From UHGV virus genome UHGV-0140723: 12,374 nt of DNA; one strand, 5' to 3'. The position numbers and the translations under genes are program-made. Within the stretch, counting starts at the first letter, position 1. The number at the start of each line of letters is the position of its first letter. Shown here in pieces: positions 1 to 10,508 of the stretch. The stretch comes from a virus. Below the pieces are notes generated by a model, which saw nothing but the letters and a program-made list of their open reading frames with translations, did no database searches and was not told the origin of the DNA.

Positions 1-236
1 CTTTTTTCGTTGTATTTTGTCAGAATCTCACAAGATAAAACATCATATTTTGTAACCGCTTTGCCTTTGTCGAGGTCAAAGAATCCGAACGCTTTACCGT
101 CTTTGAATCCGACAACTTCGTAAGACTCTTTAATGATTTCACCATTGAACAAATCACTCTCGATACGATGGAATAATGCTACATCCTCTTTGTCGGTTGC
201 AATTTGTAAAAGTGTGGTCAGTTCGACGTGTTCCAT
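1..236 (-). CDS. hypothetical protein, 3' end cut by window edge (78 codons visible, MEHVELTTLLQIATDKEDVALFHRIESDLF...)
   Basis: ATG at 234-236 (minus) preceded by the conserved cassette RBS (sense CCTAAACTGGAGATTCAAAATG). Frame is open to position 3 with no stop; absent from the ORF track because no stop lies in the window. Confidence 0.55.
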   Translation of the reverse strand, partial: MEHVELTTLLQIATDKEDVALFHRIESDLFNGEIIKESYEVVGFKDGKAFGFFDLDKGKAVTKYDVLSCEILTKYNEK

Positions 237-324
237 TTTGAATCTCCAGTTTAGGATTTTATTTAGTGGGGGGAGGTCATCCCCCGTTGATTGACAATTT
301 ACAGATTTTTGATTGTCTCGTCAA
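237..324 (-). promoter_or_regulatory. PeSL-like cassette, family 1 (promoter, 5'UTR hairpin, RBS)
   Basis: Sense strand: -35 TTGACG (319-324), 17-bp spacer, -10 TAAATT (296-301), hairpin GGGGGA/TCCCCC (269-285), then RBS GGAG and ATG. The -35 and -10 lie inside the 3' end and stop codon of CDS 299..829. Confidence 0.6.
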
Positions 325-829
325 TATCTTTTTCAATATCTTTTAAAGTTTTCTCTAAGTTCTTGATATTGAACGTTAAACCTTCACCGAGAGTCTTAGA
401 GTAACCGCTAGGGCGTAAATCATGCAGCTTGATTTCTTCCACATTGGATAAGTTTACCATCTCACCATTTGCAGCATAGGCTATTGATACAGTATTTTTA
501 GGTGCGTTGTAAAACTTGTTTAAGGACTTGATAGAACGTTCATAAGCCATTTTATAGCTATTTAAAAGGTTTTTAACGTGGCTGTGAACGTTTTTACACT
601 CATCTAAATAAAGACCTAAAAACATCGGGAGAAGTTCCGCGACAGCTTGCATAAAGTGAGAGACCACAACGGTTGCAACATTACGACGATGAACGTAATA
701 AGCCCCGTTTTCTGATTTGGTAATGGTTGCAAAGTGTACCCCATTACAACGAAATTCATAGGTATCTTTAACAGGCTTAGACATTACATTATTTGAACGA
801 ATATAGTTGATAGCTTTGAACTTGTTCAT
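299..829 (-). CDS. hypothetical protein (176 aa, MNKFKAINYIRSNN...)
   Basis: ATG at 827-829 sits directly behind the conserved cassette (+ strand cattttagaatctcctagtttaagg). The six-frame ORF 299..922 extends this frame upstream through the regulatory cassette from a TTG codon, which I treat as an artefact. Confidence 0.65.
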   Translation of the reverse strand: MNKFKAINYIRSNNVMSKPVKDTYEFRCNGVHFATITKSENGAYYVHRRNVATVVVSHFMQAVAELLPMFLGLYLDECKNVHSHVKNLLNSYKMAYERSIKSLNKFYNAPKNTVSIAYAANGEMVNLSNVEEIKLHDLRPSGYSKTLGEGLTFNIKNLEKTLKDIEKDIDETIKNL

Positions 830-922
830 TTTAGAATCTCCTAGTTTAAGGACTTTACTTAGTAGGGAGGTTATTGCCTCCCCGTTGATGAGTAATTTAC
901 TTGTTTTGATATCTGATTGCAA
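830..922 (-). promoter_or_regulatory. PeSL-like cassette, family 1
   Basis: Sense strand: -35 TTGCAA (917-922), 17 bp, -10 TAAATT (894-899), hairpin GGGAGG/CCTCCC (865-882), RBS AGGAGA, ATG at 829. Confidence 0.6.
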
Positions 923-990
923 GCAATTTTTTAAGTCTATCTATAAAGAATCTTTTAAGTTAATCCCTTTTAGATAAACCCCCTCGAACA

Positions 991-1019
991 AAGTTACCAA
1001 TGTCAAGAGGGATTGTCAA
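991..1019 (-). promoter_or_regulatory. additional sigma70-like promoter upstream of the 830..922 cassette
   Basis: Sense strand TTGACA (1014-1019), 17 bp, TAACTT (991-996). The segment 923..1051 has no credible ORF. The -35 region tgtcaacatctttttaaa recurs at 2724-2741. Confidence 0.4.
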
Positions 1020-1051
1020 CATCTTTTTAAAAGTTTTTTGTAAGTTATTGA

Positions 1052-1393
1052 TTAACTGATGAATATTTTTTCAGGTTTTACATAGCTGATACGCTGATTT
1101 TTTAGTAGGCTATCCCATAACAAGGCGGCAATGTGCCCATATCCGGCCTCACGCAGCCCCTTCATCGTTTCAACTCGACTCTCAAAACGATTTGCGTAAT
1201 ACTCGCTATTAAGTGTCGTTTTGTTCCCTTCGTTATCTGTATGGATGATTTGCATCACTTGAAAGGGGCTGACATCCTCGCCTTTGTTCCACTGCTCAAA
1301 GTATTTTAGGCACTGCATAGGTGACATCTTATCACTTACTTGAGTTGACCAAGATGAATCTTCTTTATCGGTAATTACAGTTACATAAGCCAT
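1052..1393 (-). CDS. hypothetical protein (113 aa)
   Basis: ATG at 1391-1393 directly behind a family-1 cassette with RBS AGGAGA; ORF from the track. Confidence 0.7.
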   Translation of the reverse strand: MAYVTVITDKEDSSWSTQVSDKMSPMQCLKYFEQWNKGEDVSPFQVMQIIHTDNEGNKTTLNSEYYANRFESRVETMKGLREAGYGHIAALLWDSLLKNQRISYVKPEKIFIS

Positions 1394-1487
1394 TTTAGAA
1401 TCTCCTAGTTTAAGGACTTTATTTAGTGGGGAAGGTCATTCCCTCCCCGTTGATTGACAATTTACAGACTTTTATCAGGCTTGTCTA
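1394..1487 (-). promoter_or_regulatory. PeSL-like cassette, family 1
   Basis: Sense strand: -35 TAGACA (1482-1487, overlapping the TAG stop of CDS 1485..1718), 17 bp, -10 TAAATT (1459-1464), hairpin GGGGAGGG/CCTTCCCC with one G.U wobble (1428-1448), RBS, ATG 1393. Confidence 0.6.
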
Positions 1488-1718
1488 GTCTTTTTCAATG
1501 ATAATTTCATATTGACCATCGACACTGTCAAAATAGACGCCGTCTTCATCTTCTGTCTTAAAGTAGCATTGAATATCATCACTGGCGGGATAGTCTTGTC
1601 TTGCTATCTGGCAAACTTGAATAGCATTTTCTTTACTCCCTGTAAACTCCTCAAGCCCTTTAAAATCACATGAATGACCATTACAAATAGAAAGGATAAG
1701 ATAAACGGTTGTAAGCAT
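1485..1718 (-). CDS. small protein with hydrophobic N-terminus and 4 Cys (77 aa); possibly exported
   Basis: ATG at 1716-1718 with RBS AAGGG about 8 nt upstream. N-terminus MLTTVYLILSICNGHSC is signal-peptide-like. No cassette upstream, only a short hairpin (1737-1751), so probably co-transcribed with 1782..2345. Confidence 0.55.
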   Translation of the reverse strand: MLTTVYLILSICNGHSCDFKGLEEFTGSKENAIQVCQIARQDYPASDDIQCYFKTEDEDGVYFDSVDGQYEIIIEKD

Positions 1719-1781
1719 GATTTAAGCCCTTTAAATGGCCCTGTATGGGCCTTAAGTTGGAAGTTGGTGTCTTTGTACTGA

Positions 1782-2345
1782 TTAACCTAAAAAGTCTTTT
1801 AAATTGCGCTCTGTGATGTTTGCCGTGATTTTATCCAGCAAGTCACAAAACACGGAACTATCACCGCTATTCTGTACAATTTTCGCCATACTTAACAAAT
1901 CATCGTCAACATAGCCTAAATTGCGGTTAGTTGCATCTGGTACAAAGAAAGGTGCATACATCGCACTAAATTTCGTCGAGTGAAGGCCAATAATCCAATT
2001 TTTATCAAAGTGTCCGGTAAAGCTGGCGATATCGCTCATGTTGTCACAAGAATAATCATCCTCTAGCTCTTCCTCTGGGATATCCATCTCAATGACAATT
2101 ACGTCCTGCGTTTCCATTTGGAAAGCTGCCGTAATAAGCCCAGATTCTAAAGCGTTTTGAATGCAGCGTTCACGAATGTAAGAATCTTCCTCATCTTCCA
2201 GACATTCCGTTTTGATAATCTTGTTCATTGGGTAAACGTAGAAACAATCATCCATGTATGAGCAGTTCCAGATTCCTTCCGGCTTGTCGCCACCATTCAG
2301 CAGGTTTACAAAGTTTTTGAGGGTAGTTCCGTGATAGCATTTCAT
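1782..2345 (-). CDS. hypothetical protein (187 aa); possible H-Y-E class ADP-ribosyltransferase-like fold (low-confidence functional call)
   Basis: ATG 2343-2345 behind a family-2 cassette. N-terminal MKCYHGTTLKNFVNLLNGG and downstream GIWNCSYMDDCFYVY resemble, from memory, the YHGT...GG and W-x-x-(F/S)-Y motifs of diphtheria toxin and exotoxin A and the DarT N-terminal motif. No search was run. Confidence 0.45.
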   Translation of the reverse strand: MKCYHGTTLKNFVNLLNGGDKPEGIWNCSYMDDCFYVYPMNKIIKTECLEDEEDSYIRERCIQNALESGLITAAFQMETQDVIVIEMDIPEEELEDDYSCDNMSDIASFTGHFDKNWIIGLHSTKFSAMYAPFFVPDATNRNLGYVDDDLLSMAKIVQNSGDSSVFCDLLDKITANITERNLKDFLG

Positions 2346-2427
2346 TTTTGAATCTCCTAGTTTAAGGATTGAGTGGTAAAGCTCTTTATCTGGGGCTTAA
2401 GTTATCAACTTTTAAGCCCCTTGTAAA
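2346..2427 (-). promoter_or_regulatory. PeSL-like cassette, family 2
   Basis: Sense strand: upstream stop TAA, then -35 CTTTACA (2422-2427), 17-bp spacer containing the 5' arm of hairpin GGGGCTTAA/TTAAGCCCC (2392-2420), -10 TAACTT (2399-2404) preceded by TG, then AGATAAAGAGCTTTACC...CTAAACTAGGAGATTCAAAAATG. Confidence 0.55.
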
Positions 2428-2432
2428 GTACT

Positions 2433-2636
2433 TTATTTGTTATTTTTGACAACTTTTAAAACTGCAAGGTAACCTAAGCAATAAGAATCACCGAAAAGAG
2501 TCCTACCCATGAAAGAATCCTCTTTGATATCCTTTGCAGTGACAGTTTTTTCTACGCCGTGGGAAAGGACTACATCACCAACTTTGATATCTTTGATGTG
2601 TGTTGTTTCAATGGTTAAGCCGTTAATAATAGCCAT
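2433..2636 (-). CDS. hypothetical protein (67 aa)
   Basis: ATG 2634-2636 behind a family-1 cassette; stop TAA at 2433-2435 is the first triplet of the next cassette. Confidence 0.6.
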   Translation of the reverse strand: MAIINGLTIETTHIKDIKVGDVVLSHGVEKTVTAKDIKEDSFMGRTLFGDSYCLGYLAVLKVVKNNK

Positions 2637-2729
2637 TTTAGAATCTCCTAGTTTAAGGACTTTATTTAGTAGGGAGGTTATTGCCTCCCCGTTGATGAGT
2701 AATTTAATCTATCTAAAAATCAGTGTCAA
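2637..2729 (-). promoter_or_regulatory. PeSL-like cassette, family 1
   Basis: Sense strand: -35 TTGACA (2724-2729), 17 bp, -10 TAAATT (2701-2706), hairpin GGGAGG/CCTCCC (2672-2689), RBS, ATG 2636. The -35 directly follows the stop of CDS 2737..3141. Confidence 0.6.
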
Positions 2730-2736
2730 CATCTTT

Positions 2737-3141
2737 TTAAAGTTCTGCGTAGATTGCATCACAGACATCACGGAAATCATGATTTGTTAAGTTACGTTGT
2801 AACCAAGTGGCAAAGAAATCAGCGATTGCAAAATTAGCGTCATACTCGACGGATAGCCACACTTTAACAGCAAATCGGAACATCTTTAAATCAAGCTCTT
2901 TATTCATTACCTTTGATTTGCCTAACATGTCGGCCATCTCATGTTGTGCACCGTCTAGCGTGATACCGGCTGCAACGTCAGCCAATGAGTTTTTTACGCT
3001 TTCAACGTCTAAGATAATACTTTGAATCTTCCCAATAATGTTTTGCAGTGTTTCATCTGGTGCTGATGATGTGATAACATTAATCCGGTTGACGGTCAAA
3101 CGTGCTTTTAAGATAGATAACTCACGATTATTAATAGCCAT
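2737..3141 (-). CDS. hypothetical protein (134 aa)
   Basis: ATG 3139-3141 behind a family-2 cassette (RBS TGGAGA); ORF from the track. Confidence 0.7.
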   Translation of the reverse strand: MAINNRELSILKARLTVNRINVITSSAPDETLQNIIGKIQSIILDVESVKNSLADVAAGITLDGAQHEMADMLGKSKVMNKELDLKMFRFAVKVWLSVEYDANFAIADFFATWLQRNLTNHDFRDVCDAIYAEL

Positions 3142-3221
3142 TTTTGAATCTCCAATTTAGGATTTAGTGGTAAAGCTCTTTATCTGGGGCTTACTTTATC
3201 GAACTATAAGCCCCTTGTAAA
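3142..3221 (-). promoter_or_regulatory. PeSL-like cassette, family 2
   Basis: -35 TTTACA (3216-3221), 17 bp, -10 TAAAGT (3193-3198), hairpin GGGGCTTA/TAAGCCCC (3186-3214) with a 13-nt loop. The central part is identical to the copy at 5239-5267. Confidence 0.55.
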
Positions 3222-3226
3222 GTACT

Positions 3227-3499
3227 TTATGCTAAATGCAGCTTTTTGCCTTTTACTATGATGTAACTTGATGCGCTATTGCCGCATACATCTTGATAAA
3301 TTCTACGCAAACGGCCTTCGTAGTATACTTTCCAGCTAGTTGGAATCTTTTTCCCGTATCCGGTAGCAGTTTTTTGGAATCCTGCAAGTTGCCAATCCAA
3401 AATGTGCTGTTCAGCTTGTAAATCCTCGAAGTGCATTACACCGTTCACATAGTGGCGTAGGGTTACGTTTAAGGTGCGACCGTTGTTAGTAGTGTACAT
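3227..3499 (-). CDS. hypothetical protein (90 aa)
   Basis: ATG 3497-3499 behind a family-1 cassette; stop TAA 3227-3229 abuts the -35 of the next cassette. Confidence 0.65.
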   Translation of the reverse strand: MYTTNNGRTLNVTLRHYVNGVMHFEDLQAEQHILDWQLAGFQKTATGYGKKIPTSWKVYYEGRLRRIYQDVCGNSASSYIIVKGKKLHLA

Positions 3500-3593
3500 T
3501 TTTGAATCTCCTAGTTTAAGGACTTTACTTAGTGGGGAAGGTCATTCCCTCCCCGTTGATTAGTAATTTACTTGTTTTTAAAACTAAAATCAA
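3500..3593 (-). promoter_or_regulatory. PeSL-like cassette, family 1
   Basis: -35 TTGATT (3588-3593, overlapping the TGA stop of CDS 3590..3922), 17 bp, -10 TAAATT (3565-3570), hairpin GGGGAGGG/CCTTCCCC (3534-3554), RBS, ATG 3499. Confidence 0.55.
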
Positions 3594-3922
3594 GAGAAAT
3601 TTTTTCGTTTGTTCAGTTCTTGGACAATTACAGTGTAATAGTCTTTTAAGTCACTGATATTTAAAGCATTTATCAGAGAGTTATAATCATCGACAAGCTG
3701 AAAATTATCTTTGAAAATGTCACTGATTTGATAAGTTTTTGATTGAAATCTGAAGCTCATTTCTAACCGTTTTATTTGTTCATCACTTAAACGCTCCAGA
3801 AAACTCATTACAAGGCTATTATTGACCTGTTGCGTGATTGCCTTACTTGCCAGATTGTAGGCGCTGTACGCCTTATATAGCGCCATAATAGCAATGATTG
3901 CAGTGATACCCATCATTAACAT
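3590..3922 (-). CDS. small membrane protein (110 aa, N-terminal transmembrane helix MLMMGITAIIAIMALY)
   Basis: ATG 3920-3922 overlaps the stop of the upstream gene (ATGTTAA, 7-nt overlap); RBS AGAGGAAG 8 nt upstream. Hydrophobic N-terminus seen directly. Confidence 0.6.
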   Translation of the reverse strand: MLMMGITAIIAIMALYKAYSAYNLASKAITQQVNNSLVMSFLERLSDEQIKRLEMSFRFQSKTYQISDIFKDNFQLVDDYNSLINALNISDLKDYYTVIVQELNKRKNFS

Positions 3923-4212
3923 AGTGCTTCCTCTTTACGTGACACTTTGCCATTTACAGTTATCTCATAAGAATCTAGTAAATCACTTTCAGACTTAACA
4001 GGACTTTTACAAGTATCATCATAAACATTAATTTGCAATACAGGCTTTTTATACTCCCTGCAACTATTCCATAAGCAAATCACTACACGACGGCCTTTTA
4101 TTTTGCCGTGTAACCATTCCATAACCTCATGAGTATTTCTTGAGGTCTCGATAAAATCAATTTTGTTGAGTAACTTGCTTAGATTTTCCCTAACTTTATT
4201 TGATAATTTCAT
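3916..4212 (-). CDS. hypothetical protein (98 aa)
   Basis: ATG 4210-4212 behind a family-2 variant cassette; translationally coupled to 3590..3922. Confidence 0.65.
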   Translation of the reverse strand: MKLSNKVRENLSKLLNKIDFIETSRNTHEVMEWLHGKIKGRRVVICLWNSCREYKKPVLQINVYDDTCKSPVKSESDLLDSYEITVNGKVSRKEEALC

Positions 4213-4292
4213 TTTTGAGTCTCCTAGTTTAAGGTTAGTTAATAAAGCTCTTTATCTGGGGCTATCTTATCAGCTTGATAACCCCGTGTAAA
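4213..4292 (-). promoter_or_regulatory. PeSL-like cassette, family 2 variant
   Basis: -35 CTTTACA (4287-4292), -10 TAAGAT (4264-4269), hairpin sense GGGGTTATC/GATAGCCCC (4258-4285). Inner stem base pairs differ from other family-2 copies by compensatory changes plus one G.U wobble. Confidence 0.55.
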
Positions 4293-4301
4293 GAGGTCTA
4301 T

Positions 4302-4814
4302 TTAGTTCTTAAAGATATTCATCACTGAATCTTTTAATGCTTCCAAGCGTTCTAATACTTCAGATTCTGCGTCTGCGTTGTTCACTTCCTCTTTTAGTCT
4401 GTTATCTAAATCATCGCCGTCACTGTAGCACCAATCGAAAGCATAACCAATATAAAAACTCTCTAAAACCGTGCTACCGTTTGCATCTACAACTTTCGCG
4501 GCGATGTTATATTCTGAAGCCTCTAAATCTCTTTCTAGTTCTTTCTGTAAGCTGATATAAGCCTCTTTTGATGGATTTTCCCGGCCTTGTTTTGCATAGT
4601 CACTCGAAAGCTGTTTCAGGCTGTAATGTAAAGGGATTGCATATTTAAATTCATTACGCTGATAAATAGGATTTTTAACAGTAACACCGCCTTGATGGTT
4701 GTCTGTAAATTCCCAATTATCAAGGTTATGGCTTGCTTCGTAGCAATTAACAGCTTCGTAAATGATGGAAAATTTTTCTTTTACAACTTCAAAGGTAGCG
4801 TCTACAGTTTTCAT
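4302..4814 (-). CDS. hypothetical protein (170 aa, acidic C-terminal half)
   Basis: ATG 4812-4814 behind a family-2 cassette; ORF from the track. Confidence 0.7.
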   Translation of the reverse strand: MKTVDATFEVVKEKFSIIYEAVNCYEASHNLDNWEFTDNHQGGVTVKNPIYQRNEFKYAIPLHYSLKQLSSDYAKQGRENPSKEAYISLQKELERDLEASEYNIAAKVVDANGSTVLESFYIGYAFDWCYSDGDDLDNRLKEEVNNADAESEVLERLEALKDSVMNIFKN

Positions 4815-4894
4815 TTTTGAATCTCCAGTTTAGGATTTAGTGGTAAAGCTCTTTATCTGGGGCTTAAGATATCAGCTTTTAAGCCCCTTGTAAA
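4815..4894 (-). promoter_or_regulatory. PeSL-like cassette, family 2
   Basis: -35 TTTACA (4889-4894), 17 bp, -10 TATCTT (4866-4871), hairpin GGGGCTTAA/TTAAGCCCC (4859-4887). Confidence 0.55.
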
Positions 4895-4902
4895 GTACTT
4901 TA

Positions 4903-5193
4903 TCAGTTAATTTTCAGCTTTGCATAACCTCTCATTGTACGAATGGGAGACGTTAAGGTTACGCGTCTGATATATGCCTTTTTAGTGTATACAGTTGTCT
5001 TCCCGATGGTGTTTACATGCGTGAAAAGGTTTATTGGTGAATTTTTTAAATTCATTTGTTTATCAGCCTTCACACCCCATCTTACAGCAGTTTGTTTTCC
5101 GTTGTCAACCACTTTTCCGCCTAACTTTTTCGCCATGATGCGAGCGTCATCACGAGTTTTTGCAGGAATTACAACGTTTTTGATAATAGCCAT
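4903..5193 (-). CDS. hypothetical basic protein (96 aa, MAIIKNVVIPAKTRDDARIMAKKLGG...)
   Basis: ATG 5191-5193 behind cassette RBS TGGAGAAC. The track ORF 4903..5208 starts at a TTG inside the RBS region and is an artefactual 5-codon extension. Confidence 0.65.
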   Translation of the reverse strand: MAIIKNVVIPAKTRDDARIMAKKLGGKVVDNGKQTAVRWGVKADKQMNLKNSPINLFTHVNTIGKTTVYTKKAYIRRVTLTSPIRTMRGYAKLKIN

Positions 5194-5274
5194 TTTTAAG
5201 TTCTCCAATTTAGGATTTAGTGGTAAAGCTCTTTATCTGGGGCTTACTTTATCGAACTATAAGCCCCTTGTAAA
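5194..5274 (-). promoter_or_regulatory. PeSL-like cassette, family 2
   Basis: -35 TTTACA (5269-5274), hairpin GGGGCTTA/TAAGCCCC (5239-5267), same loop as the 3142..3221 copy. Confidence 0.55.
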
Positions 5275-5282
5275 GTACTTTA

Positions 5283-5663
5283 TCAGTTAATTTTGAAAAT
5301 TGTCACATAGCCGTCACTGCCGATTATTTGAGACACTCCAGCTTTTTCCACTGAATAGCCCATATTTTCAAGATGATAAACAGCATCATCATAACCATAT
5401 GCGCCACCCTGATAACGTCTCTTATCGCATCTTATCAGGTTTTTACCACGTCCTGCAAGTGCATTCAGTACGGCTTTTTCACTTGATAGCGTACCATCTA
5501 ACATGGTTGCCGTGTAATGGTTGATTTTATTCCCGTTAATATCATACTTAAAATTGAATGCGTGAACAACAATCAATTTGCCGTTAAATTTTTCATCAAG
5601 TGACTTCTCCAGTGCGTTGCGGAAGTTGTCTTTGTTGATGAATTTCGGTGCACGATAAGCCAT
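5283..5663 (-). CDS. hypothetical protein (126 aa)
   Basis: ATG 5661-5663 behind a family-2 cassette. Last codons and stop (AAA ATT AAC TGA) are identical to those of CDS 4903..5193. Confidence 0.7.
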   Translation of the reverse strand: MAYRAPKFINKDNFRNALEKSLDEKFNGKLIVVHAFNFKYDINGNKINHYTATMLDGTLSSEKAVLNALAGRGKNLIRCDKRRYQGGAYGYDDAVYHLENMGYSVEKAGVSQIIGSDGYVTIFKIN

Positions 5664-5746
5664 TTTTGAATCTCCTAGTTTAAGGGTTAATTTAGTAAAG
5701 CTCTTTATCTGGGGCTTAAGATATCAGCTTTTAAGCCCCCTGTAAA
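5664..5746 (-). promoter_or_regulatory. PeSL-like cassette, family 2
   Basis: -35 TTTACA(G) (5741-5746), hairpin GGGGCTTAA/TTAAGCCCC (5711-5739), RBS AGGAGA, ATG 5663. Confidence 0.55.
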
Positions 5747-5751
5747 GTACT

Positions 5752-5958
5752 TTATTTGTCGTAGTAGTAAATCGCTGTCTGCCTTGTAAATTTCTTAGTG
5801 TTTCTTGTAAGGTAGCAATTAGAATTAATAGCCGTTTCTACATAGTTGCAATAGTCGGCTTCTGATATTCTGGACCATACGCCACAGATTTTCATGTAAA
5901 AACGTTTTACCTTTGTGTTAACGTTAGTTGTAACCATTAATTCACGATAGTAAGTCAT
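5752..5958 (-). CDS. hypothetical protein (68 aa)
   Basis: ATG 5956-5958 with RBS TGGAGAA; driven by the divergent cassette at 5959..6037. Confidence 0.6.
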   Translation of the reverse strand: MTYYRELMVTTNVNTKVKRFYMKICGVWSRISEADYCNYVETAINSNCYLTRNTKKFTRQTAIYYYDK

Positions 5959-6037
5959 TTTTGGATTCTCCAGTTTAGGAAGTGGGCTGGCTTGCCCGTC
6001 TGATGCAAATATTAAATAACCATAGTCAAAGAGTCAA
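5959..6037 (-). promoter_or_regulatory. divergent promoter + stem-loop + RBS cassette (first module of the array)
   Basis: Sense strand: -35 TTGACT (6032-6037), 17 bp, -10 TAATAT (6009-6014), short hairpin GGGC/GCCC (5984-5997), RBS TGGAGAA, ATG 5958. Same architecture as family 1, different sequence. Confidence 0.55.
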
Positions 6038-6203
6038 TAGGAATTTTAAAAATATTTTTGCAAAAAAAAAAAACTGTAATGAAACGGGTGCGCGCGATTA
6101 CCACAAAACAGAACTATAATCAAGAATTATTTTTCAATCCGCTACAAATTTTTCTGTTGACTTTTATTTTCAGATGTGGTAGCCTTGTGAGAAATGGCGA
6201 CAG

Positions 6204-6400
6204 CCCCACCTACCCCCACCTACCTGCACAATTCTAAAATGATTTTTCTTGCCCGACCTGAGCGGGGTCTGCACGTTTTGAAAATGAAAAAGCTCTTTGG
6301 AGATTACCTGCACAGTTTGAAAATGAATTTTCTCTTTGGAGTTCAAAATTTTCTCTACAGATTTCTCTACAGAACTCTACCTGCACAATTCTAAAATGAA
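6204..6400. repeat. cluster of short direct repeats in an ORF-free segment
   Basis: Four copies of CTGCAC(A/G)nTT(C/T)(T/G)AAAATGA starting at 6224, 6269, 6309 and 6382, two of them within a ~40-bp tandem unit (6268-6302 vs 6308-6342, 28/35 identical); tandem cccacctac x2 (6204-6222); tandem tttctctacag x2 (6351-6373). Confidence 0.6.
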
Positions 6401-6443
6401 AAAGCCCTCCTTACCTGAAAAATTTACCAGATAAGAAAGGCTT
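6391..6443 (-). terminator. intrinsic terminator-like long hairpin downstream of the macrodomain gene
   Basis: Sense RNA: AAGCCUUUCUUAUCUG / loop GUAAAUUUUU / CAGGUAAGGAGGGCUU gives a 16-bp stem with three G.U wobbles, followed by UUUCAUUUU. The wobbles would be C-A mismatches on the opposite strand. Confidence 0.5.
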
Positions 6444-6472
6444 AGGCTATTGTGAATATCCTACAGAGTTTC

Positions 6473-7258
6473 TTAGTTCTTTGCGTCTAAGAAGGTAACT
6501 TCTGGTGAAGAGAAGATTGCCTCGATATCCTCATCAGTTCTTGCATAGATATAAGCTTCTGCATCACTACCAAATGTTACAGCAATTCTGTGATTGCTCT
6601 TTGACAGGTGGGTAACTAGAGCGTTACTTAGAGACATCTTTTCAACCGGAGGGTTACTTTGATGTATCTTACCTTTTCTTCGTCTGAAGAGGGTAACTGC
6701 GTTATCTGTGAACACTGCTACACCTGCAAAGTATTCTGGTTCACAGTAGTTCTTCCAACCTGAGCGTAACTTGTGGTACATCTCGCCTTCATAGACATAC
6801 AGATAAACATCTACACTCTTCATCACCTGATTGATGATAACTGTGATGGCTTGAGGGTCAAGTCCACCGATACCTGCACCAATCATAGGTAAACCAACTT
6901 TCTTCAACTGATTAACTTCACAGTATCTGTTAAGCTGCTTCAAAGATGACTCTAAAGCACTGTATCGGGCATCTTTACCAGTCTTAAGCTGAGTGTAAAG
7001 GTTAGCTATACGGCCTTGTTCTAAACGTGCTACAGAGAAATTACCCAGTAAATTTTCACAGGGTTTGTGGCCTATACCACCTGCATATAGATAAACTTCT
7101 GTATCGGTCTCATATGCTTTTGGGTAAAGTTTAGAAATCTTGTCAGCGATACCTGCACCCATTAAATTCATACAGTTGCAACCGTGACCGATGATGTCAA
7201 ACTTACCTTTATCAAATGCGGCAAAGATATCACCATTGATTATTTTTACAATACCCAT
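6473..7258 (-). CDS. macrodomain protein, TARG1/OARD1/DarG-like N-terminal domain (~150 aa) plus unknown ~110-aa C-terminal domain
   Basis: 261-aa ORF; ATG 7256-7258 abuts the upstream stop (TAAATG) with RBS GGGAGAG. Motifs GDIF...GHGCNCMNLMGAGIA and LPMIGAGIGGLD match, from memory, the GDLF...HCISEDCRMGAGIA and MPRIGCGLD signature regions of human TARG1. Confidence 0.7.
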   Translation of the reverse strand: MGIVKIINGDIFAAFDKGKFDIIGHGCNCMNLMGAGIADKISKLYPKAYETDTEVYLYAGGIGHKPCENLLGNFSVARLEQGRIANLYTQLKTGKDARYSALESSLKQLNRYCEVNQLKKVGLPMIGAGIGGLDPQAITVIINQVMKSVDVYLYVYEGEMYHKLRSGWKNYCEPEYFAGVAVFTDNAVTLFRRRKGKIHQSNPPVEKMSLSNALVTHLSKSNHRIAVTFGSDAEAYIYARTDEDIEAIFSSPEVTFLDAKN

Positions 7259-7459
7259 TTAACATCTCTCCCAAGACTCTTTATCTTCTGAAGGTTTTAC
7301 ACGCTGTCCTTCGTGGTCTACCCAGATGCACCCACAACCTTCACAGATTACTGGCATTGCGTAGCCAGCTTTAAAGTCATCTTCAGTGATAAGACCTTTT
7401 AAGTCACCTGTATCACGTCCGAACATTTCGATAGAACAATCTTTACAGAAGTCAGCCAT
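7259..7459 (-). CDS. small Cys-rich protein (66 aa, CxxC...CEGCGC, zinc-ribbon-like)
   Basis: ATG 7457-7459 overlaps the TGA of the upstream gene (ATGGCTGA); RBS AAGAGG 9 nt upstream. The track ORF 7259..7537 begins at a GTG inside the upstream gene; I prefer the coupled ATG. Confidence 0.5.
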   Translation of the reverse strand: MADFCKDCSIEMFGRDTGDLKGLITEDDFKAGYAMPVICEGCGCIWVDHEGQRVKPSEDKESWERC

Positions 7460-7679
7460 GAATAATTGCCTCTTGAATGATGATACCTTTACCACAACGA
7501 CTTTTAAAGTCTTCCAATGGTTCAGAGATGAAGCCACGTAAGCAGTCAGTAAATACTAAGTTCTTCCTGTAAGCTATCACATCATTTGCTGTAAATGGGA
7601 TGACCTCATTTCGTCCAATGAACACTGCTGACCTGATAAGCTTTCGTGTCTTTTTATCTCTGGCTAGTATTACTTTCAT
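7452..7679 (-). CDS. hypothetical basic protein (75 aa)
   Basis: ATG 7677-7679 with RBS GAGAAGG 7 nt upstream; overlaps the end of the upstream gene by 26 nt in another frame. Confidence 0.55.
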   Translation of the reverse strand: MKVILARDKKTRKLIRSAVFIGRNEVIPFTANDVIAYRKNLVFTDCLRGFISEPLEDFKSRCGKGIIIQEAIIHG

Positions 7680-7980
7680 AGTTTACCTTCTCAGTTAGCT
7701 CATATAAATCAACATGCTCAATACTATCAATGTTGATATCAATCTTTTTGAAGCGTTCTATCACTTCGTTGTCAGTCATCCATATCAGACACCAATGATT
7801 CTGAATGGATTCTTCAAGAAGGTCAACACAATCTTTAAAAGTTTTTGTGTCACTTCTTGTTCCGACCACTGCAATTGTTCCATATAGCCACTTACCATTG
7901 CCGTAAGTTACTTGTGCTACACCAACCTCTTTATCTTTCTCGTAGTAAACGGCTACAAAATCTCTTCCATTAATCTGCAT
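7654..7980 (-). CDS. hypothetical protein (108 aa)
   Basis: ATG 7978-7980, 2 nt after the upstream stop; RBS GAGGAAG. Confidence 0.6.
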   Translation of the reverse strand: MQINGRDFVAVYYEKDKEVGVAQVTYGNGKWLYGTIAVVGTRSDTKTFKDCVDLLEESIQNHWCLIWMTDNEVIERFKKIDINIDSIEHVDLYELTEKVNYESNTSQR

Positions 7981-7982
7981 AG

Positions 7983-8252
7983 TTACTTCCTCGTTTTAAG
8001 AACTGCTAAGATTTCTTTAGAGTCTGGTAAGAACCATGTGTAGTGATTCTCTTTGATTTCTGGATGAGTGTCAACCTTTATTTTGCACTCTTTACCAACA
8101 TGCTTAAGCTGTGCTGTGACACCTTGCATAAAGATATGACACATCACATTATCCATAATGGTTGGTATGAAGTCAATTCGCATATAAGTTTCTTTTGGTC
8201 GCGGTAACAGTAAGTACCCTTCTACGTAAAAAGTATCTTCATTCTCTGTCAT
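7983..8252 (-). CDS. hypothetical protein (89 aa)
   Basis: ATG 8250-8252 overlaps the upstream stop (ATGA); RBS AGGAAA. Confidence 0.6.
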   Translation of the reverse strand: MTENEDTFYVEGYLLLPRPKETYMRIDFIPTIMDNVMCHIFMQGVTAQLKHVGKECKIKVDTHPEIKENHYTWFLPDSKEILAVLKTRK

Positions 8253-8518
8253 TGCTGTTTATTTCCTAATAAAATCATGTCAATAAGGTTGTTAGCTTTG
8301 ATTGTGCACTGGTAAAAGCCGTCACGATAGAACTCAAGGGCTGCTGCTACATTACTGCCTGTGTTGCCTTTGATGATATACCGTGATTCTTCTTGAGTGT
8401 ACTTGTCACTCTCACTTACTTGGGAGTTTTTGAATGTACTGCTCACTTTGTTCGTTGAACACCCTGACATAGTTATCAGTAACACAAACATTATAAAACT
8501 CTGGCTTAGTTTTTTCAT
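8249..8518 (-). CDS. putative lipoprotein (89 aa); o-spanin-like by architecture
   Basis: N-terminus MKKLSQSFIMFVLLITMSGC is a signal peptide with a lipobox-like MSGC; second Cys in the mature part. RBS AAGAGGT 8 nt upstream. Start lies 107 nt inside the 3' end of 8412..8759. Confidence 0.6.
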   Translation of the reverse strand: MKKLSQSFIMFVLLITMSGCSTNKVSSTFKNSQVSESDKYTQEESRYIIKGNTGSNVAAALEFYRDGFYQCTIKANNLIDMILLGNKQQ

Positions 8519-8759
8519 ATGTTAGTACCTCTTTTGTATGCTTATTCTTAGCAAGCACATCTTTCAAATCATTTTTGTAATTGGTGCTCAGTGTGACTAA
8601 CCCTTCCTGATAAGCATCTTTAGCAACACTTATGAGCTTTTGATTGTTTAGCTCAGTTTCAGCAACTTGATAGTCTCTGTAAGAGTATCCTCCCCAGACA
8701 CCTGCCCCAACTAAGAAAACAATTATGAAAGTAGCTTGACAGAACTCTTTAAATGTCAT
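8412..8759 (-). CDS. membrane-anchored protein (115 aa, N-terminal TM helix FIIVFLVGAGVWGG); i-spanin-like by architecture
   Basis: ATG 8757-8759 with strong RBS AGGAGA 7 nt upstream, immediately after the terminator at 8778..8799; single N-terminal hydrophobic helix then a charged domain. Confidence 0.6.
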   Translation of the reverse strand: MTFKEFCQATFIIVFLVGAGVWGGYSYRDYQVAETELNNQKLISVAKDAYQEGLVTLSTNYKNDLKDVLAKNKHTKEVLTYEKTKPEFYNVCVTDNYVRVFNEQSEQYIQKLPSK

Positions 8760-8777
8760 TTAACAATCTCCTGAAAT

Positions 8778-8799
8778 GAAAAAGGCTCCCGAAGGAGCC
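8778..8799 (-). terminator. rho-independent terminator
   Basis: Sense RNA GGCUCC-UUCG-GGAGCC, a perfect 6-bp GC stem with UUCG tetraloop, followed by UUUUUC. Lies 13 nt after the stop of CDS 8812..9276. Confidence 0.8.
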
Positions 8800-8811
8800 T
8801 GTATCTTAACC

Positions 8812-9276
8812 TTAACCGAGGACTTTAGCAAGGACATTTGCAGCCATCGAAGAAGCTTTTGCAGCAGCAGCTACCCCAGCTTTGACAGTGCTATCCTTGA
8901 TAGCAGATACCGTTGCAGCATCAGTAAAGAGATAAGTAGTTGTTTTAGAACCACTTGTAAAGGAAAGCATAAGAGCAGTTTCCAGATTGAAAGAGCGATA
9001 CGGAGCACCTTCTTTAACGATACCTTCAGCACCTAATTCTGAAGCCATCCCCATATCATAGATAGTCATCAGGTTTTCTTTGTGTGCTGTGGTTGAGCCA
9101 GAACCCTTTACGTGTTTCTTAACATTCAAAAGAGCACGATACTCTCGGATGTTACCGTCTGCTTTTACGTTGACAGCACGGAAGATTTTACCCTCAAAGT
9201 TGCTCTTGATAATGTTACGAACTACTTCAGATTTGTTTGCCGTAACGTCCAGTGCTACCGTAATGATATTGTTCAT
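8812..9276 (-). CDS. hypothetical protein (154 aa, Ala/Ser/Thr-rich C-terminus)
   Basis: ATG 9274-9276 with RBS GAGAG; last gene before the strong terminator. Confidence 0.7.
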   Translation of the reverse strand: MNNIITVALDVTANKSEVVRNIIKSNFEGKIFRAVNVKADGNIREYRALLNVKKHVKGSGSTTAHKENLMTIYDMGMASELGAEGIVKEGAPYRSFNLETALMLSFTSGSKTTTYLFTDAATVSAIKDSTVKAGVAAAAKASSMAANVLAKVLG

Positions 9277-9286
9277 AAGTTTTCTC

Positions 9287-9982
9287 TCAATGTTTAACTA
9301 ACATGGTTTTGATGTGTGGAAGGATTCTGCTCACCTTCTGCACATTCTTCTCTGTGTCTTCTATAAAACATACTATATTAAAGTAAGGCAGAATGCAAGA
9401 CTGAATCATCCTCACTTTCAAACTTTCTGCACTTATAGAGTTAGTTCCAAAACCACGCATAAAAAGCATGTAATCATGCTCTATGTAATGCCTTAAAAAC
9501 ATCTCAGTAGGGATTCTCTGAGATTCACCTCTAGCTGTCAAGAGTCCAATGGCAGCATGATTAGCAATTGCATCAATGATATTGAAAACATACGTCGGCT
9601 TTGCACTTACAGAGTCAAGCAAATTAGTGTACTGTGAAAATGACCCATCAATCAATTCCGTTGAGTAATCTTCGTGATTAAAATTTGTAAGAACACCATC
9701 AATGTCTGCTAAGATAAGGTTACCTTTTTCTACAAGGTCTTTATTGGCTATGACTAAGCTGTCACGCCTTACACCTATAGTTTGTCCAGTCTCTTTATCT
9801 ACAACATTCACAATTGGCTCTGATGTGTGAAACTCTTCAAGTGAACATATAACTTCTCTTGCAGTGTCTTCAAAATCCCTACACTGTTCTGGAGTCCATA
9901 CACAGGAATTAAGACCTAACTCATGAGGATGTAAGTCATAAGCATGACACAGTACTTCATCAGACTTTCTTAATTTTTTCAT
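9287..9982 (-). CDS. HAD-superfamily phosphatase-like protein (231 aa); resembles the 3'-phosphatase domain of T4 polynucleotide kinase/phosphatase but has no P-loop kinase domain
   Basis: HAD motif I LILADIDGVLT, motif II GLLTARGES and a C-terminal acidic motif FIEDTEKNVQKV parallel, from memory, the FDVDGTL, VVSGRES and AIDDRTQVV motifs of T4 Pnk. No GxxxxGK(S/T) anywhere. ATG 9980-9982 overlaps the upstream gene by 23 nt. Confidence 0.65.
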   Translation of the reverse strand: MKKLRKSDEVLCHAYDLHPHELGLNSCVWTPEQCRDFEDTAREVICSLEEFHTSEPIVNVVDKETGQTIGVRRDSLVIANKDLVEKGNLILADIDGVLTNFNHEDYSTELIDGSFSQYTNLLDSVSAKPTYVFNIIDAIANHAAIGLLTARGESQRIPTEMFLRHYIEHDYMLFMRGFGTNSISAESLKVRMIQSCILPYFNIVCFIEDTEKNVQKVSRILPHIKTMLVKH

Positions 9983-10508
9983 GATTTACCTTAGAAATGT
10001 TTGTTGCAAATTCACATTGAGCGATAACTTTCATGTTGTTATAGACATCTTGAGAATACTTCTTAGCTTTAGGGATTCTGTACGAATACCCAGCATTATA
10101 TGATGCTAAAACTTTTTGTAAAGTCTTCTTTGACTTTGGCTGACCATGTACCTTTGTCCAAAACTCAAGCTCTTTGTGCGTTTCCTTTGCAGCATAGTCA
10201 AAGTCTTTTAAGAGTTTCTTTTTAGCCACATTAGGACTAATTTTGTTACGCTTTACAACAGTCTTCAAGTGATTCTGGAAAATACCATAATCATGTGTCT
10301 TTTTATTCTCTACCTTCAGACCTAACTCTGACTCTTGTAAGGCTATAGCAGCTAGAGTGATACCCCAACCTTTGCCCATGTTATTCTCACCATACTGGTA
10401 AGCTTTTAACATGTTTACTTTTTGGCTAATTGATAGCTCTGGGCAGTCAACTGCATAAGATAAGTGTGCTGTAAACATTAAGCACAAACCTAGAATCAAT
10501 TTCTTCAT
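9960..10508 (-). CDS. exported lytic transglycosylase-like protein (SLT domain, 182 aa) with cleavable signal peptide
   Basis: N-terminus MKKLILGLCLMFTAHLSYA is a signal peptide. Family-1 lytic transglycosylase motifs ALQESELG (catalytic E-S), DYGIFQN and LASYNAGYSY. ATG 10506-10508 with RBS AGGAGAA. Confidence 0.8.
   Translation of the reverse strand: MKKLILGLCLMFTAHLSYAVDCPELSISQKVNMLKAYQYGENNMGKGWGITLAAIALQESELGLKVENKKTHDYGIFQNHLKTVVKRNKISPNVAKKKLLKDFDYAAKETHKELEFWTKVHGQPKSKKTLQKVLASYNAGYSYRIPKAKKYSQDVYNNMKVIAQCEFATNISKVNHEKIKKV

Follow-up and report, generated by a model that had tools for sequence, protein, structure and literature searches.

Promoter-early stem-loop (PeSL) cassettes, described in the T4-like phages RB49/phi1, PST and nt-1 (Arbiol et al. 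2010, PMC2839356; Comeau et al. 2014, PMC4122927), are the closest known counterpart of the elements that we report here. In RB49/phi1, each PeSL begins with an upstream stop codon in an AT-rich region, has a sigma-70 promoter and ends with a Shine-Dalgarno (SD) sequence and a start codon; its stem-loop, with runs of G and C, is mostly located between the promoter boxes, overlapping the -10 box or just downstream of it (PMC2839356). PeSLs are concentrated in hyperplastic ORFan regions and mediate indels and replacements there; in experiments they proved strong both as promoters and as terminators, and they give rise to mini-circles (PMC2839356, PMC4122927). We analysed a 12,374-nt stretch of the virus genome UHGV-0140723 (hereafter the window, i.e. 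the whole stretch of DNA under analysis) and found an array of repeated promoter-hairpin cassettes between small genes. It is likely, with a probability of about 0.8, that these are PeSL-type cassettes in an Ounavirinae phage and that they shuffle genes by cassette recombination. No paper in the literature searched had described PeSL-like cassettes or promoter stem-loops in Felixounavirus or mapped its transcripts, no expression data were found for this genus, and a search for "PeSL" gave no relevant phage paper besides PMC2839356 and PMC4122927.

The whole 12.4-kb window is matched by 278 phage records with 91-95% identity, none of them identical to it. Nearly all belong to Felixounavirus (Felix O1-like myoviruses) and infect Escherichia, Salmonella or Shigella. 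By similarity, the window can be assigned to the early region of a Felixounavirus near rIIA/rIIB, as comparison with the annotated phage AYO145A places these two genes at its right end. All genes of the window are on the minus strand. After rIIA/rIIB comes an operon of abutting genes, the last member being a phosphatase gene (6473..7258). Beyond a 0.5-kb non-coding stretch, a run of small genes begins at about 6040 and extends leftwards. Positions 230-6040 form the array, a hyperplastic early-gene region with 13 small minus-strand ORFan genes, and two cassette types account for 11 of its spacers. The module genes of the array match only PHROG families without known function and none has a Pfam match; a search of the whole window against Rfam gave no match either. 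In the complete genome of AYO145A (87 kb), both cassette types are confined to 8.8-14.6 kb, i.e. to this array.

The repeat families of the window were grouped as D1-D8 and all spacers were aligned in register on the coding strand. The cassettes measure about 90 bp (eleven of 62-100 nt, in two families) and have the same order 5' to 3' on the minus strand: an AT-rich stretch with the upstream stop codon, sigma-70-like -35 and -10 boxes, a GGGG...CCCC hairpin (in type 2 it contains the -10), then a conserved tail and a strong SD, with the ATG last. Type 1 is present in five copies, in the spacers ending at 298, 1051, 1484, 2736 and 3589. Its TTGACA-like -35 (TTGACA, TAGACA, TTGATT, TTGCAA or TTGACG) is always separated by 17 nt from a -10 TAAATT, and about 10 nt later (10-11 nt past the -10) starts the hairpin GGGGAGG...CCTCCCC, followed by the tail ACTAAATAAAGTCCTTAAAC, the SD TAGGAGA, 8 nt and the ATG. 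The six copies of type 2 are in the spacers ending at 2432, 3226, 4301, 4902, 5282 and 5751. They start with (T)AAAGTAC and have TTTACA as -35; the hairpin GGGGCTTA...TAAGCCCC, of 28-30 nt, encloses at exactly 17-nt spacing a -10 that varies between TATCTT, TAAAGT, TAAGAT and TAACTT, and the tail AGATAAAGAGCTTTACCACTAAATCC then leads to the SD and ATG. Every cassette carries (A/T)GGAGA-N7-8-ATG, and stop codons are found in all of them 0-20 nt upstream of the promoter or within it. A strict consensus scan of the sequence predicted a promoter at 8 of the 11 cassettes. The hairpins, folded in 59 distinct sequence variants from 21 genomes, reach -10 to -17 kcal/mol and keep their pairing while the sequence varies. 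A strand test based on G-U pairs clearly favours the sense RNA for type 1, whose hairpin is more stable in that form because of these pairs, and is ambiguous for type 2. We rejected the hairpins as canonical intrinsic (rho-independent) terminators because they have no U-tract; the single canonical terminator near the array is at 6402-6443(-).

Gene gain, gene loss and cassette exchange

We compared gene content and breakpoints with the homologous region of 20 Felixounavirus genomes. Twelve distinct events of gene presence or absence were identified in the array. For 11 of them both junctions are in cassettes, with alignment blocks overlapping by 23-126 nt of cassette; the junctions are therefore in register and one intact cassette is left. 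The deletions pair like with like, type 1 with type 1 and type 2 with type 2. Positions 1455-2630 are missing in FelixO1 and PMBT20 (type 1-type 1 junction, 68-nt overlap), 4902-5660 in FelixO1 (90 nt), 2435-5660 in LF82P5 (89 nt) and 2448-4808 in AN17P8 (106 nt), and NRG857CP1 is devoid of both 933-3499 (106 nt) and 4915-5213 (81 nt). Extra genes, with a duplicated cassette on their flanks, were found at cassettes C2 (CRP22), C4 (KhF1, LTH02, P54) and C7 (LTH02, P54, MET-P1). The gene G13 (5752..5958, an ORFan of 68 aa) is missing in five phages (AYO145A, SUT_S720, humlepung, PMBT20 and AN17P8) and G0 in eight. Per gene, such events are about twice as frequent in the array as in the cassette-free operon, although this comparison is small.

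To broaden the sample, we took 60 records spaced evenly down the BLAST ranking and located the ends of their homology blocks. From 86 internal ends, 81 are at most 15 nt from a cassette (27% expected; p about 1e-39), as are 21 of the 25 distinct end clusters (p = 4.5e-9). Only 20 of the 86 ends are strictly inside spacers. Most ends thus sit just inside the flanking coding sequences (CDSs), where they cluster a few nucleotides from the border, e.g. at 4910-4917, 5293-5296, 1385-1391 and 2339-2343. This bears out the original prediction, made from the window alone, that cassette boundaries lie inside the 3' ends of upstream genes. Its reading of these boundaries as footprints of module shuffling is likewise supported by the comparison with close relatives that it had proposed, and the contrary pattern that it named, the same gene order with indels not bounded by cassettes, did not occur among the relatives. 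As for modules being exchanged as units, this holds for gene-content changes; modules are not the only unit of exchange, as allelic breakpoints are also found inside genes.

The cassettes themselves are exchanged. The identity matrix per module between the window and its relatives is a mosaic, the subtype of the cassette that follows a given gene varies between phages, and chimeras occur. For example, the gene G6 (2737..3141, an ORFan of 134 aa) is followed in relatives by promoters of C5 type, of C7 type or chimeric; in mio, the cassette downstream of it combines the -35 of one subtype with the spacer and -10 of another. The type-2 loop variants A, B and C change position from phage to phage. 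In KhF1, an identical tract of 83 nt, including AAA ATT AAC AAA TAA, is present after both G11 (4903..5193) and G12 (5283..5663). The identity begins exactly at AAAATTAACAAATAA and the end of the G11 protein changes from KIN* to KINK*; this is a conversion tract, by which the last four codons and the whole cassette passed from one gene to another. In addition, the cassette C4 of the window is a patchwork of the two cassettes flanking an extra gene in LTH02. Crossovers occur at various points along the cassette: those of the G13 and C7 events fall in the tail or SD, those of other events in the promoter or loop.

The same two types, with a lineage-specific consensus, are present in the sister genus Mooglevirus (Citrobacter phage Mordin). 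At 6036-6178 of Mordin, two type-2 cassettes are arranged head to tail in a single 143-nt spacer; a module may have been lost there out of register, with this arrangement as the scar. In seven spacers of the region, the annotation deposited with this genome marks a repeat_region of 14 nt immediately upstream of the ribosome-binding site.

We then investigated the gene ends shared by unrelated open reading frames (ORFs). The repeat strings quoted in the original prediction are all exact at their coordinates. TATCAGTTAATTTT is present at 4901-4914 and 5281-5294, and the CDSs 4903..5193 and 5283..5663 (-) both end with AAA ATT AAC TGA (KIN*). The 18-mer TGTCAACATCTTTTTAAA is found at 1014-1031 and 2724-2741. 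In 200 dinucleotide shuffles each, 0 matches are expected for this 18-mer with at most 2 mismatches, and 0.02 for the 14-mer with at most 1 mismatch; neither repeat is thus a chance occurrence. The CDSs 2433..2636 and 5752..5958 do end with AAA TAA followed by AGTACTTTACA, but the agreement reaches only one codon beyond the stop, and the common TAA is the cassette's own first triplet. An overlap between -35 and stop codon had been proposed at three places: it is real at 1485-1487 (TAGACA) and 3590-3592 (TTGATT) and absent at 2737-2739, where the TAA sits in the AT-rich stretch 7 nt upstream of the -35 TTGACA (2724-2729). The clearest case was outside the range of that prediction: the whole promoter TTGACG-N17-TAAATT at 296-324 is contained in the last 8 codons of CDS 299..829, the TAA stop of which forms part of the -10. 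BLASTP does not align the two KIN-ending proteins, G11 and G12, even with a threshold of E<=100, so their shared end is a DNA-level repeat that belongs to the cassette, as predicted; on the same ground, paralogy of these two genes was rejected. The identity of the G11 and G12 ends starts abruptly 12 nt before the stop.

More generally, the repeat runs 12-15 nt into coding sequence at gene 3' ends. As the repeat unit extends from about 12-15 nt upstream of the stop to a few nucleotides past the ATG, unrelated genes share their last codons. The leading TAA of type 2 is the stop of 2433..2636, 3227..3499 and 5752..5958, and in two further genes a TGA precedes it, giving tandem stops. The motif AAAA(T/A)TAAC(NNN) upstream of the cassette TAA is common to the three unrelated families G5, G11 and G12. 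Across the 21 genomes in which gene ends were compared, each of these families has 3-5 alternative ends from a common pool (...AACTGATAA, ...AACTAATAA, ...AACAAATAA, ...AAGTAATA(A/G)). The G5 end in SUT_S720, LTH02 and P54 is the G11-type segment in another reading frame, and a 52-aa gene of LTH02 stops at a TAA within the type-1 tail ACTAAATAAAGTCC. The stretch embedded in coding sequence spans roughly -55 to -36 of the predicted promoter, which would be the place for an AT-rich UP-like element, and the stretch AAAATTAAC...TAAAGTAC may have a UP-element role besides its coding constraint. The repeat also passes the start codon (2623-2639, 3128-3144 and 5180-5196; also 1384-1397 and 5654-5667). 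The unrelated G5, G6 and G11 start with ATGGCTATTA(T/A)T (MAII/MAIN), and G2 and G12 with ATGGCTTAT (MAY). These shared starts could be an extension of the cassette into 5' coding sequence or the product of selection on the translation-initiation region.

Mechanism and competing explanations

We propose that, owing to its cassette, each downstream gene would be transcribed early and autonomously, as a unit of its own, and that the hairpin of the cassette probably attenuates or stabilises upstream transcripts. The comparison with relatives shows that the cassettes, being 80-100% alike over 60-100 nt, provide portable homology. By recombination or gene conversion between them, within one genome or between co-infecting relatives, whole modules are deleted, inserted or swapped in register, and one intact cassette, often chimeric, remains.

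Several observations weigh against this proposal. Segmentation of the identity between the window and each of the 20 relatives with a 3-state hidden Markov model put 20 of 70 breakpoint clusters in cassettes (21% expected; p = 0.08), and intragenic patches recur at 413-512, 1106-1217 and 4907-5059. As every array spacer is a cassette, location alone does not separate cassette recombination from selection for whole-gene indels. The cassette-free operon (6473-10508) also has indels at gene boundaries, with at most 17 nt of SD-ATG homology, and in the array a 62-aa gene upstream of G13, translationally coupled, is bounded by 7 nt of microhomology only (AAAAATG). Conservation of the KIN-type termini extends through the genus and to Mooglevirus; they are long-standing promoter-upstream parts, not fresh scars. 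Single substitutions separate some of the shared 3'-end variants (TGA, TAA or AAA ahead of the cassette TAA), and these could have a parallel origin. A test of concerted evolution against Mooglevirus gave a modest excess of identity within genomes (0.88-0.90) over that between them (0.84), which is supportive, not decisive. Moreover, no cassette hairpin was called an intrinsic terminator in a scan, the U-tract that should follow being absent, and the promoter, attenuator and recombination-substrate activities of the cassettes are deduced from sequence.

The breakpoint analysis led us to reject the strong form of the proposal, with modules as the sole unit of exchange, because allelic breakpoints are barely enriched in cassettes. 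Since allelic switches are not significantly concentrated there, general homologous recombination acts everywhere and the cassettes are no special hot spots; they matter specifically for gene-content changes. In the operon, the junction 7959-7992 (between CDS 7654..7980 and CDS 7983..8252) harbours one or two extra genes in relatives, with insertions of 297 nt in FelixO1, CRP22 and AN17P8 and of 722 nt in AYO145A and KEP2. The joins share only SD-ATG-first-codon homology (GAGGAA...ATGCA, at most 17 nt); gene-boundary indels therefore do not strictly need cassettes.

A bolder version of cassette shuffling, unlikely though conceivable, would make the array an active exchange system in a non-T4 lineage. 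The GGGG...CCCC hairpins may be recognised by a phage or host protein, and promoter-carrying mini-circles may be excised and re-enter any cassette of a co-infecting relative. The edge embedded in upstream coding sequence may act as a universal socket, from which any incoming ORF would obtain a short AT-rich C-terminal tail and tandem stops, and the promoter that follows its UP element. Shuffling of the PeSL type, convergent or ancient, may then be a general strategy of virulent enterobacterial myoviruses and not a T4 peculiarity.

It is improbable that the cassettes resemble each other through function alone, i.e. that the needs of promoter, UP-like element, SD and hairpin created the likeness, that selection removed partial indels and that cassettes are not recombination substrates. 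Indel junctions in register with overlaps of 23-126 nt speak against such convergence, even though the gene-boundary indels of the cassette-free operon and the lack of enrichment of allelic breakpoints in cassettes would agree with it. The position of the CDS-embedded stretch, which at roughly -55 to -36 of the predicted start is that of a UP element, and its conservation in the genus and sister genus also fit a functional origin. This origin does not account for loop variants A, B and C that move between positions without obvious functional difference, for chimeric cassettes (C5 in mio; C4 of the window compared with LTH02) or for the tandem double cassette of Mordin. Nor does it predict the use of one end segment in different frames in G5 and G11, or that the identical tract of KhF1 should turn the protein end KIN* into KINK*.

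That the cassettes would be autonomous mobile elements (similar to miniature inverted-repeat transposable elements or integron attC sites), inserting themselves or moved by a dedicated site-specific recombinase, is very improbable. They are short, repeated, hairpin-bearing intergenic elements that bound single genes, but all have one orientation, are fused to the upstream stop and downstream start and are confined to one 6-kb array. The aligned spacers contain no target-site duplications or terminal inverted repeats, and the module genes encode no integrase, transposase or other Pfam domain. The GGGG...CCCC stem might be a protein target, as was also speculated for PeSLs (PMC2839356); the crossover points are nevertheless spread along the cassette, which general homologous recombination fits better than site-specific cutting. 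Finally, an origin of the shared termini in distant paralogy, by tandem duplication and then divergence of the flanking genes, is hardly credible: the genes are small, tandem and co-oriented and several share N-terminal MAI or MAY codons, but they are all in different PHROG families, G11 and G12 do not align by BLASTP, their identity begins abruptly 12 nt before the stop, and G5 uses the same segment in another frame.

If cassette shuffling is correct, the array accounts for the fast turnover of accessory early genes in Felix O1-like phages and for their continued expression. Functions in host takeover and anti-defence are usually encoded by such genes, and Felix O1-like phages are widely isolated and used for typing and biocontrol of Salmonella and E. 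coli. The cassettes would be natural landing pads for engineered insertions with early expression. They also call for caution in annotation and assembly, because gene ends can become chimeric where the repeats extend into coding sequence.

Modules, cassettes and neighbouring regions

From left to right, the array begins with the type-1 cassette C0 (234..324; families D5-D7), with its -35 TTGACG (319-324) and spacer in the last codons of CDS 299..829, a -10 TAAATT at 296-301 that holds the TAA stop of this CDS, a hairpin at 268-285 and an SD at 243-248. The gene started by its ATG (234-236) continues past the window edge. CDS 299..829 is the module gene G1 (176 aa; phrog_4725, of unknown function). 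The long spacer C1 (827..1051) has a type-1 cassette as its proximal part (-35 TTGCAA 917-922, -10 894-899, hairpin 864-883, SD 837-842) and a conserved distal part with two TTGACA motifs, including the 18-mer at 1014-1031. In this spacer (830-1051, 222 nt), the TTGACA motifs and a G-rich segment precede an ordinary type-1 cassette, and in nataliec an ORF of 38 aa is annotated there. A scar of a lost module is disfavoured, because the spacer is conserved in all relatives and in Mordin, and it is more likely a conserved regulatory region.

The ORFan G2 (1052..1393, 113 aa, phrog_4318) is followed by the type-1 cassette C2 (1391..1487; family D3), the -35 TAGACA of which (1482-1487) holds the TAG stop of G3, with a -10 TAAATT at 1459-1464, hairpin at 1428-1448 and SD at 1401-1406. 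G3 (1485..1718, 77 aa) and G4 (1782..2345, 187 aa) are predicted to be a co-transcribed pair, their spacer (1719-1781) having a small hairpin and no promoter cassette. G4 has two alleles, about 65% identical, with only the first ~23 nt or so in common; G4 and its downstream spacer (1729-2322) have 62-65% identity in eight phages. The type-2 cassette C4 (2343..2447; D1) has its -35 TTTACA at 2422-2427, a -10 TAACTT (2399-2404) in the hairpin 2392-2420 and its SD at 2353-2358. Its upstream AT-rich extension AAAAATAACAAATAA supplies the last codons and the stop of the ORFan G5 (2433..2636, 67 aa), which has at least five 3'-end variants among relatives, some from G11/G12-type ends in another frame.

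The type-1 cassette C5 (2634..2741) comprises the -35 TTGACA 2724-2729, -10 TAAATT 2701-2706, hairpin 2671-2690 and SD 2644-2649; the second copy of the 18-mer covers its -35 and the G6 stop. Next comes the type-2 cassette C6 (3139..3229; -35 3216-3221, -10 TAAAGT 3193-3198, hairpin 3186-3214 with loop B, SD 3149-3154), whose leading TAA is the stop of the ORFan G7 (3227..3499, 90 aa). In the type-1 cassette C7 (3497..3593; -10 3565-3570, hairpin 3534-3554, SD 3507-3512), the -35 TTGATT (3588-3593) holds the TGA stop of G8. G8 (3590..3922, 110 aa) and G9 (3916..4212, 98 aa) overlap and form one module (3590..4212). C9 (4210..4301) is a type-2 variant (-35 4287-4292, -10 TAAGAT 4264-4269, SD 4220-4225), with a G-U pair in the sense strand of its hairpin (4258-4285).

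After the ORFan G10 (4302..4814, 170 aa) is found the type-2 cassette C10 (4812..4914; D1; -35 4889-4894, -10 TATCTT 4866-4871, hairpin 4859-4887 with loop A, SD 4822-4827). Its extension AAAATTAACTGATAA, in the region 4901-4914, gives the last three codons and TGA of G11 and then the cassette's own TAA. G11 is an ORFan of 96 aa with a second allele (85 aa) that differs only in the 3' half, 4907-5059; this half has 53-61% identity in AYO145A, mio, nataliec, P54 and ECP2307. Both divergent blocks, 4907-5059 and 1729-2322, have one boundary at a cassette edge. The type-2 cassette C11 (5191..5294; -35 5269-5274, -10 TAAAGT 5246-5251, hairpin 5239-5267 with loop B, SD 5202-5207) has the same extension as C10, which forms the end of the ORFan G12 (126 aa; protein unrelated to G11). 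In C12 (type 2, 5661..5757; -35 5741-5746, -10 TATCTT 5718-5723, hairpin 5711-5740, SD 5671-5676), the leading TAA is the stop of G13. The first promoter of the array is in C13 (5956..6037), a third type, in which TTGACT-N17-TAATAT (6009-6037) comes with a small hairpin, GGGC...GCCC, and with a tail similar to that of the cassettes, CTAAACTGGAGA, and an ATG.

Conservation in this part of the genome is highest in the non-coding stretch 5959-6472 (core 6221-6450) that separates the array from the phosphatase operon, with 94-100% identity over 19 relatives vs. about 90% for genes. This stretch contains four minus-strand copies of TTTTCATTTT[AC][AG]AA..GTGCAGGTA, a CCCCACCTAC doublet and an A12 run. 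Its minus-strand fold has a z-score of -2.5, mostly due to the terminator at 6402-6443(-), and Rfam gave no match. This region may be a regulator-binding or replication-related site. Two records are atypical: GU169904.1 ("Staphylococcus phage SA1", 147 kb) contains 81% of the window at 92% identity, and PV390658.1 (phage P54) is labelled Tequatrovirus with a Felixounavirus-like region. Both look like chimeric or mislabelled deposits.

Comparison with known systems

Morons of lambdoid phages (Juhala/Hendrix model) are thought to enter by illegitimate recombination and have no flanking family of repeated linkers. Like them, the array contains single genes with their own promoter and possibly terminator, placed between undisturbed neighbours; unlike them, its genes are flanked by such a family. 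Morons are also a subject of the discussion in PMC2839356. Integron cassettes are promoterless and need the IntI integrase and attC/attI sites. The array shares with them single-gene units bounded by hairpin-forming repeats and possible circular intermediates, whereas every cassette here has its own promoter; no integrase is present, and the module genes have no Pfam domain. In a tandem paralog cluster of bacterial lipoprotein genes, PMC2568036 describes an evolutionary unit that runs from the 3' end of one ORF across the spacer into the 5' end of the following one. There, as here, the unit that is conserved and recombines is the gene junction, not the ORF; the genes on either side are paralogs in that case, whereas here they are unrelated ORFans, with a promoter cassette as their junction.

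Direct repeats of 57 bp and 39 bp were reported, as such only, in the genome paper on Felix O1 (Whichard et al. 2010, PMC3185647). The longer one, CTTTACATGGGGCTTAAAAGTCTGTAAAGTAAGCCCCAGATAAAGAGCTTTACCACT, is the type-2 cassette; the shorter one, TTGACACTGGTTTTTAGATAGATTAAATTACACATCAAC, is the type-1 promoter. That paper locates the repeats between genes 15/16, 19/20, 18/19 and 20/21 and assigns them no promoter or recombination role; the promoters that it lists lie elsewhere in the Felix O1 genome (PMC3185647).

The closest likeness is with PeSLs. Seven of their sequence-level or comparative features are found in the Felixounavirus cassettes, which are repeated intergenic composites of about 100 bp with an upstream stop in an AT-rich stretch, predicted sigma-70-like -35 and -10 boxes at 17-nt spacing, a stem-loop with G- and C-runs that encloses the -10 (type 2) or lies past it (type 1), and the SD and start codon of the downstream gene at their 3' extremity. 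They are also clustered in a hyperplastic ORFan-rich region, and indels and replacements between close relatives are bounded by cassettes, with chimeras at the junctions. The carriers, however, are Ounavirinae (Felixounavirus and Mooglevirus) and not T4-like phages, a difference of host range and not of mechanism. The Felixounavirus cassettes are all in one 6-kb array, whereas PeSLs occur in several regions, and they form two sharply defined types with a common 3' tail. Their repeat was shown to reach 12-15 nt into sense codons of unrelated genes, and their promoter, terminator and mini-circle activities are putative. They are apparently not homologous in sequence to the PeSLs of RB49, as judged without direct sequence comparison. 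Current understanding is not overturned. The PeSL principle, already described for T4-like phages, is extended to the Ounavirinae (two genera examined), and the modular evolution of virulent phages appears to make recurrent use of repeated regulatory linkers.

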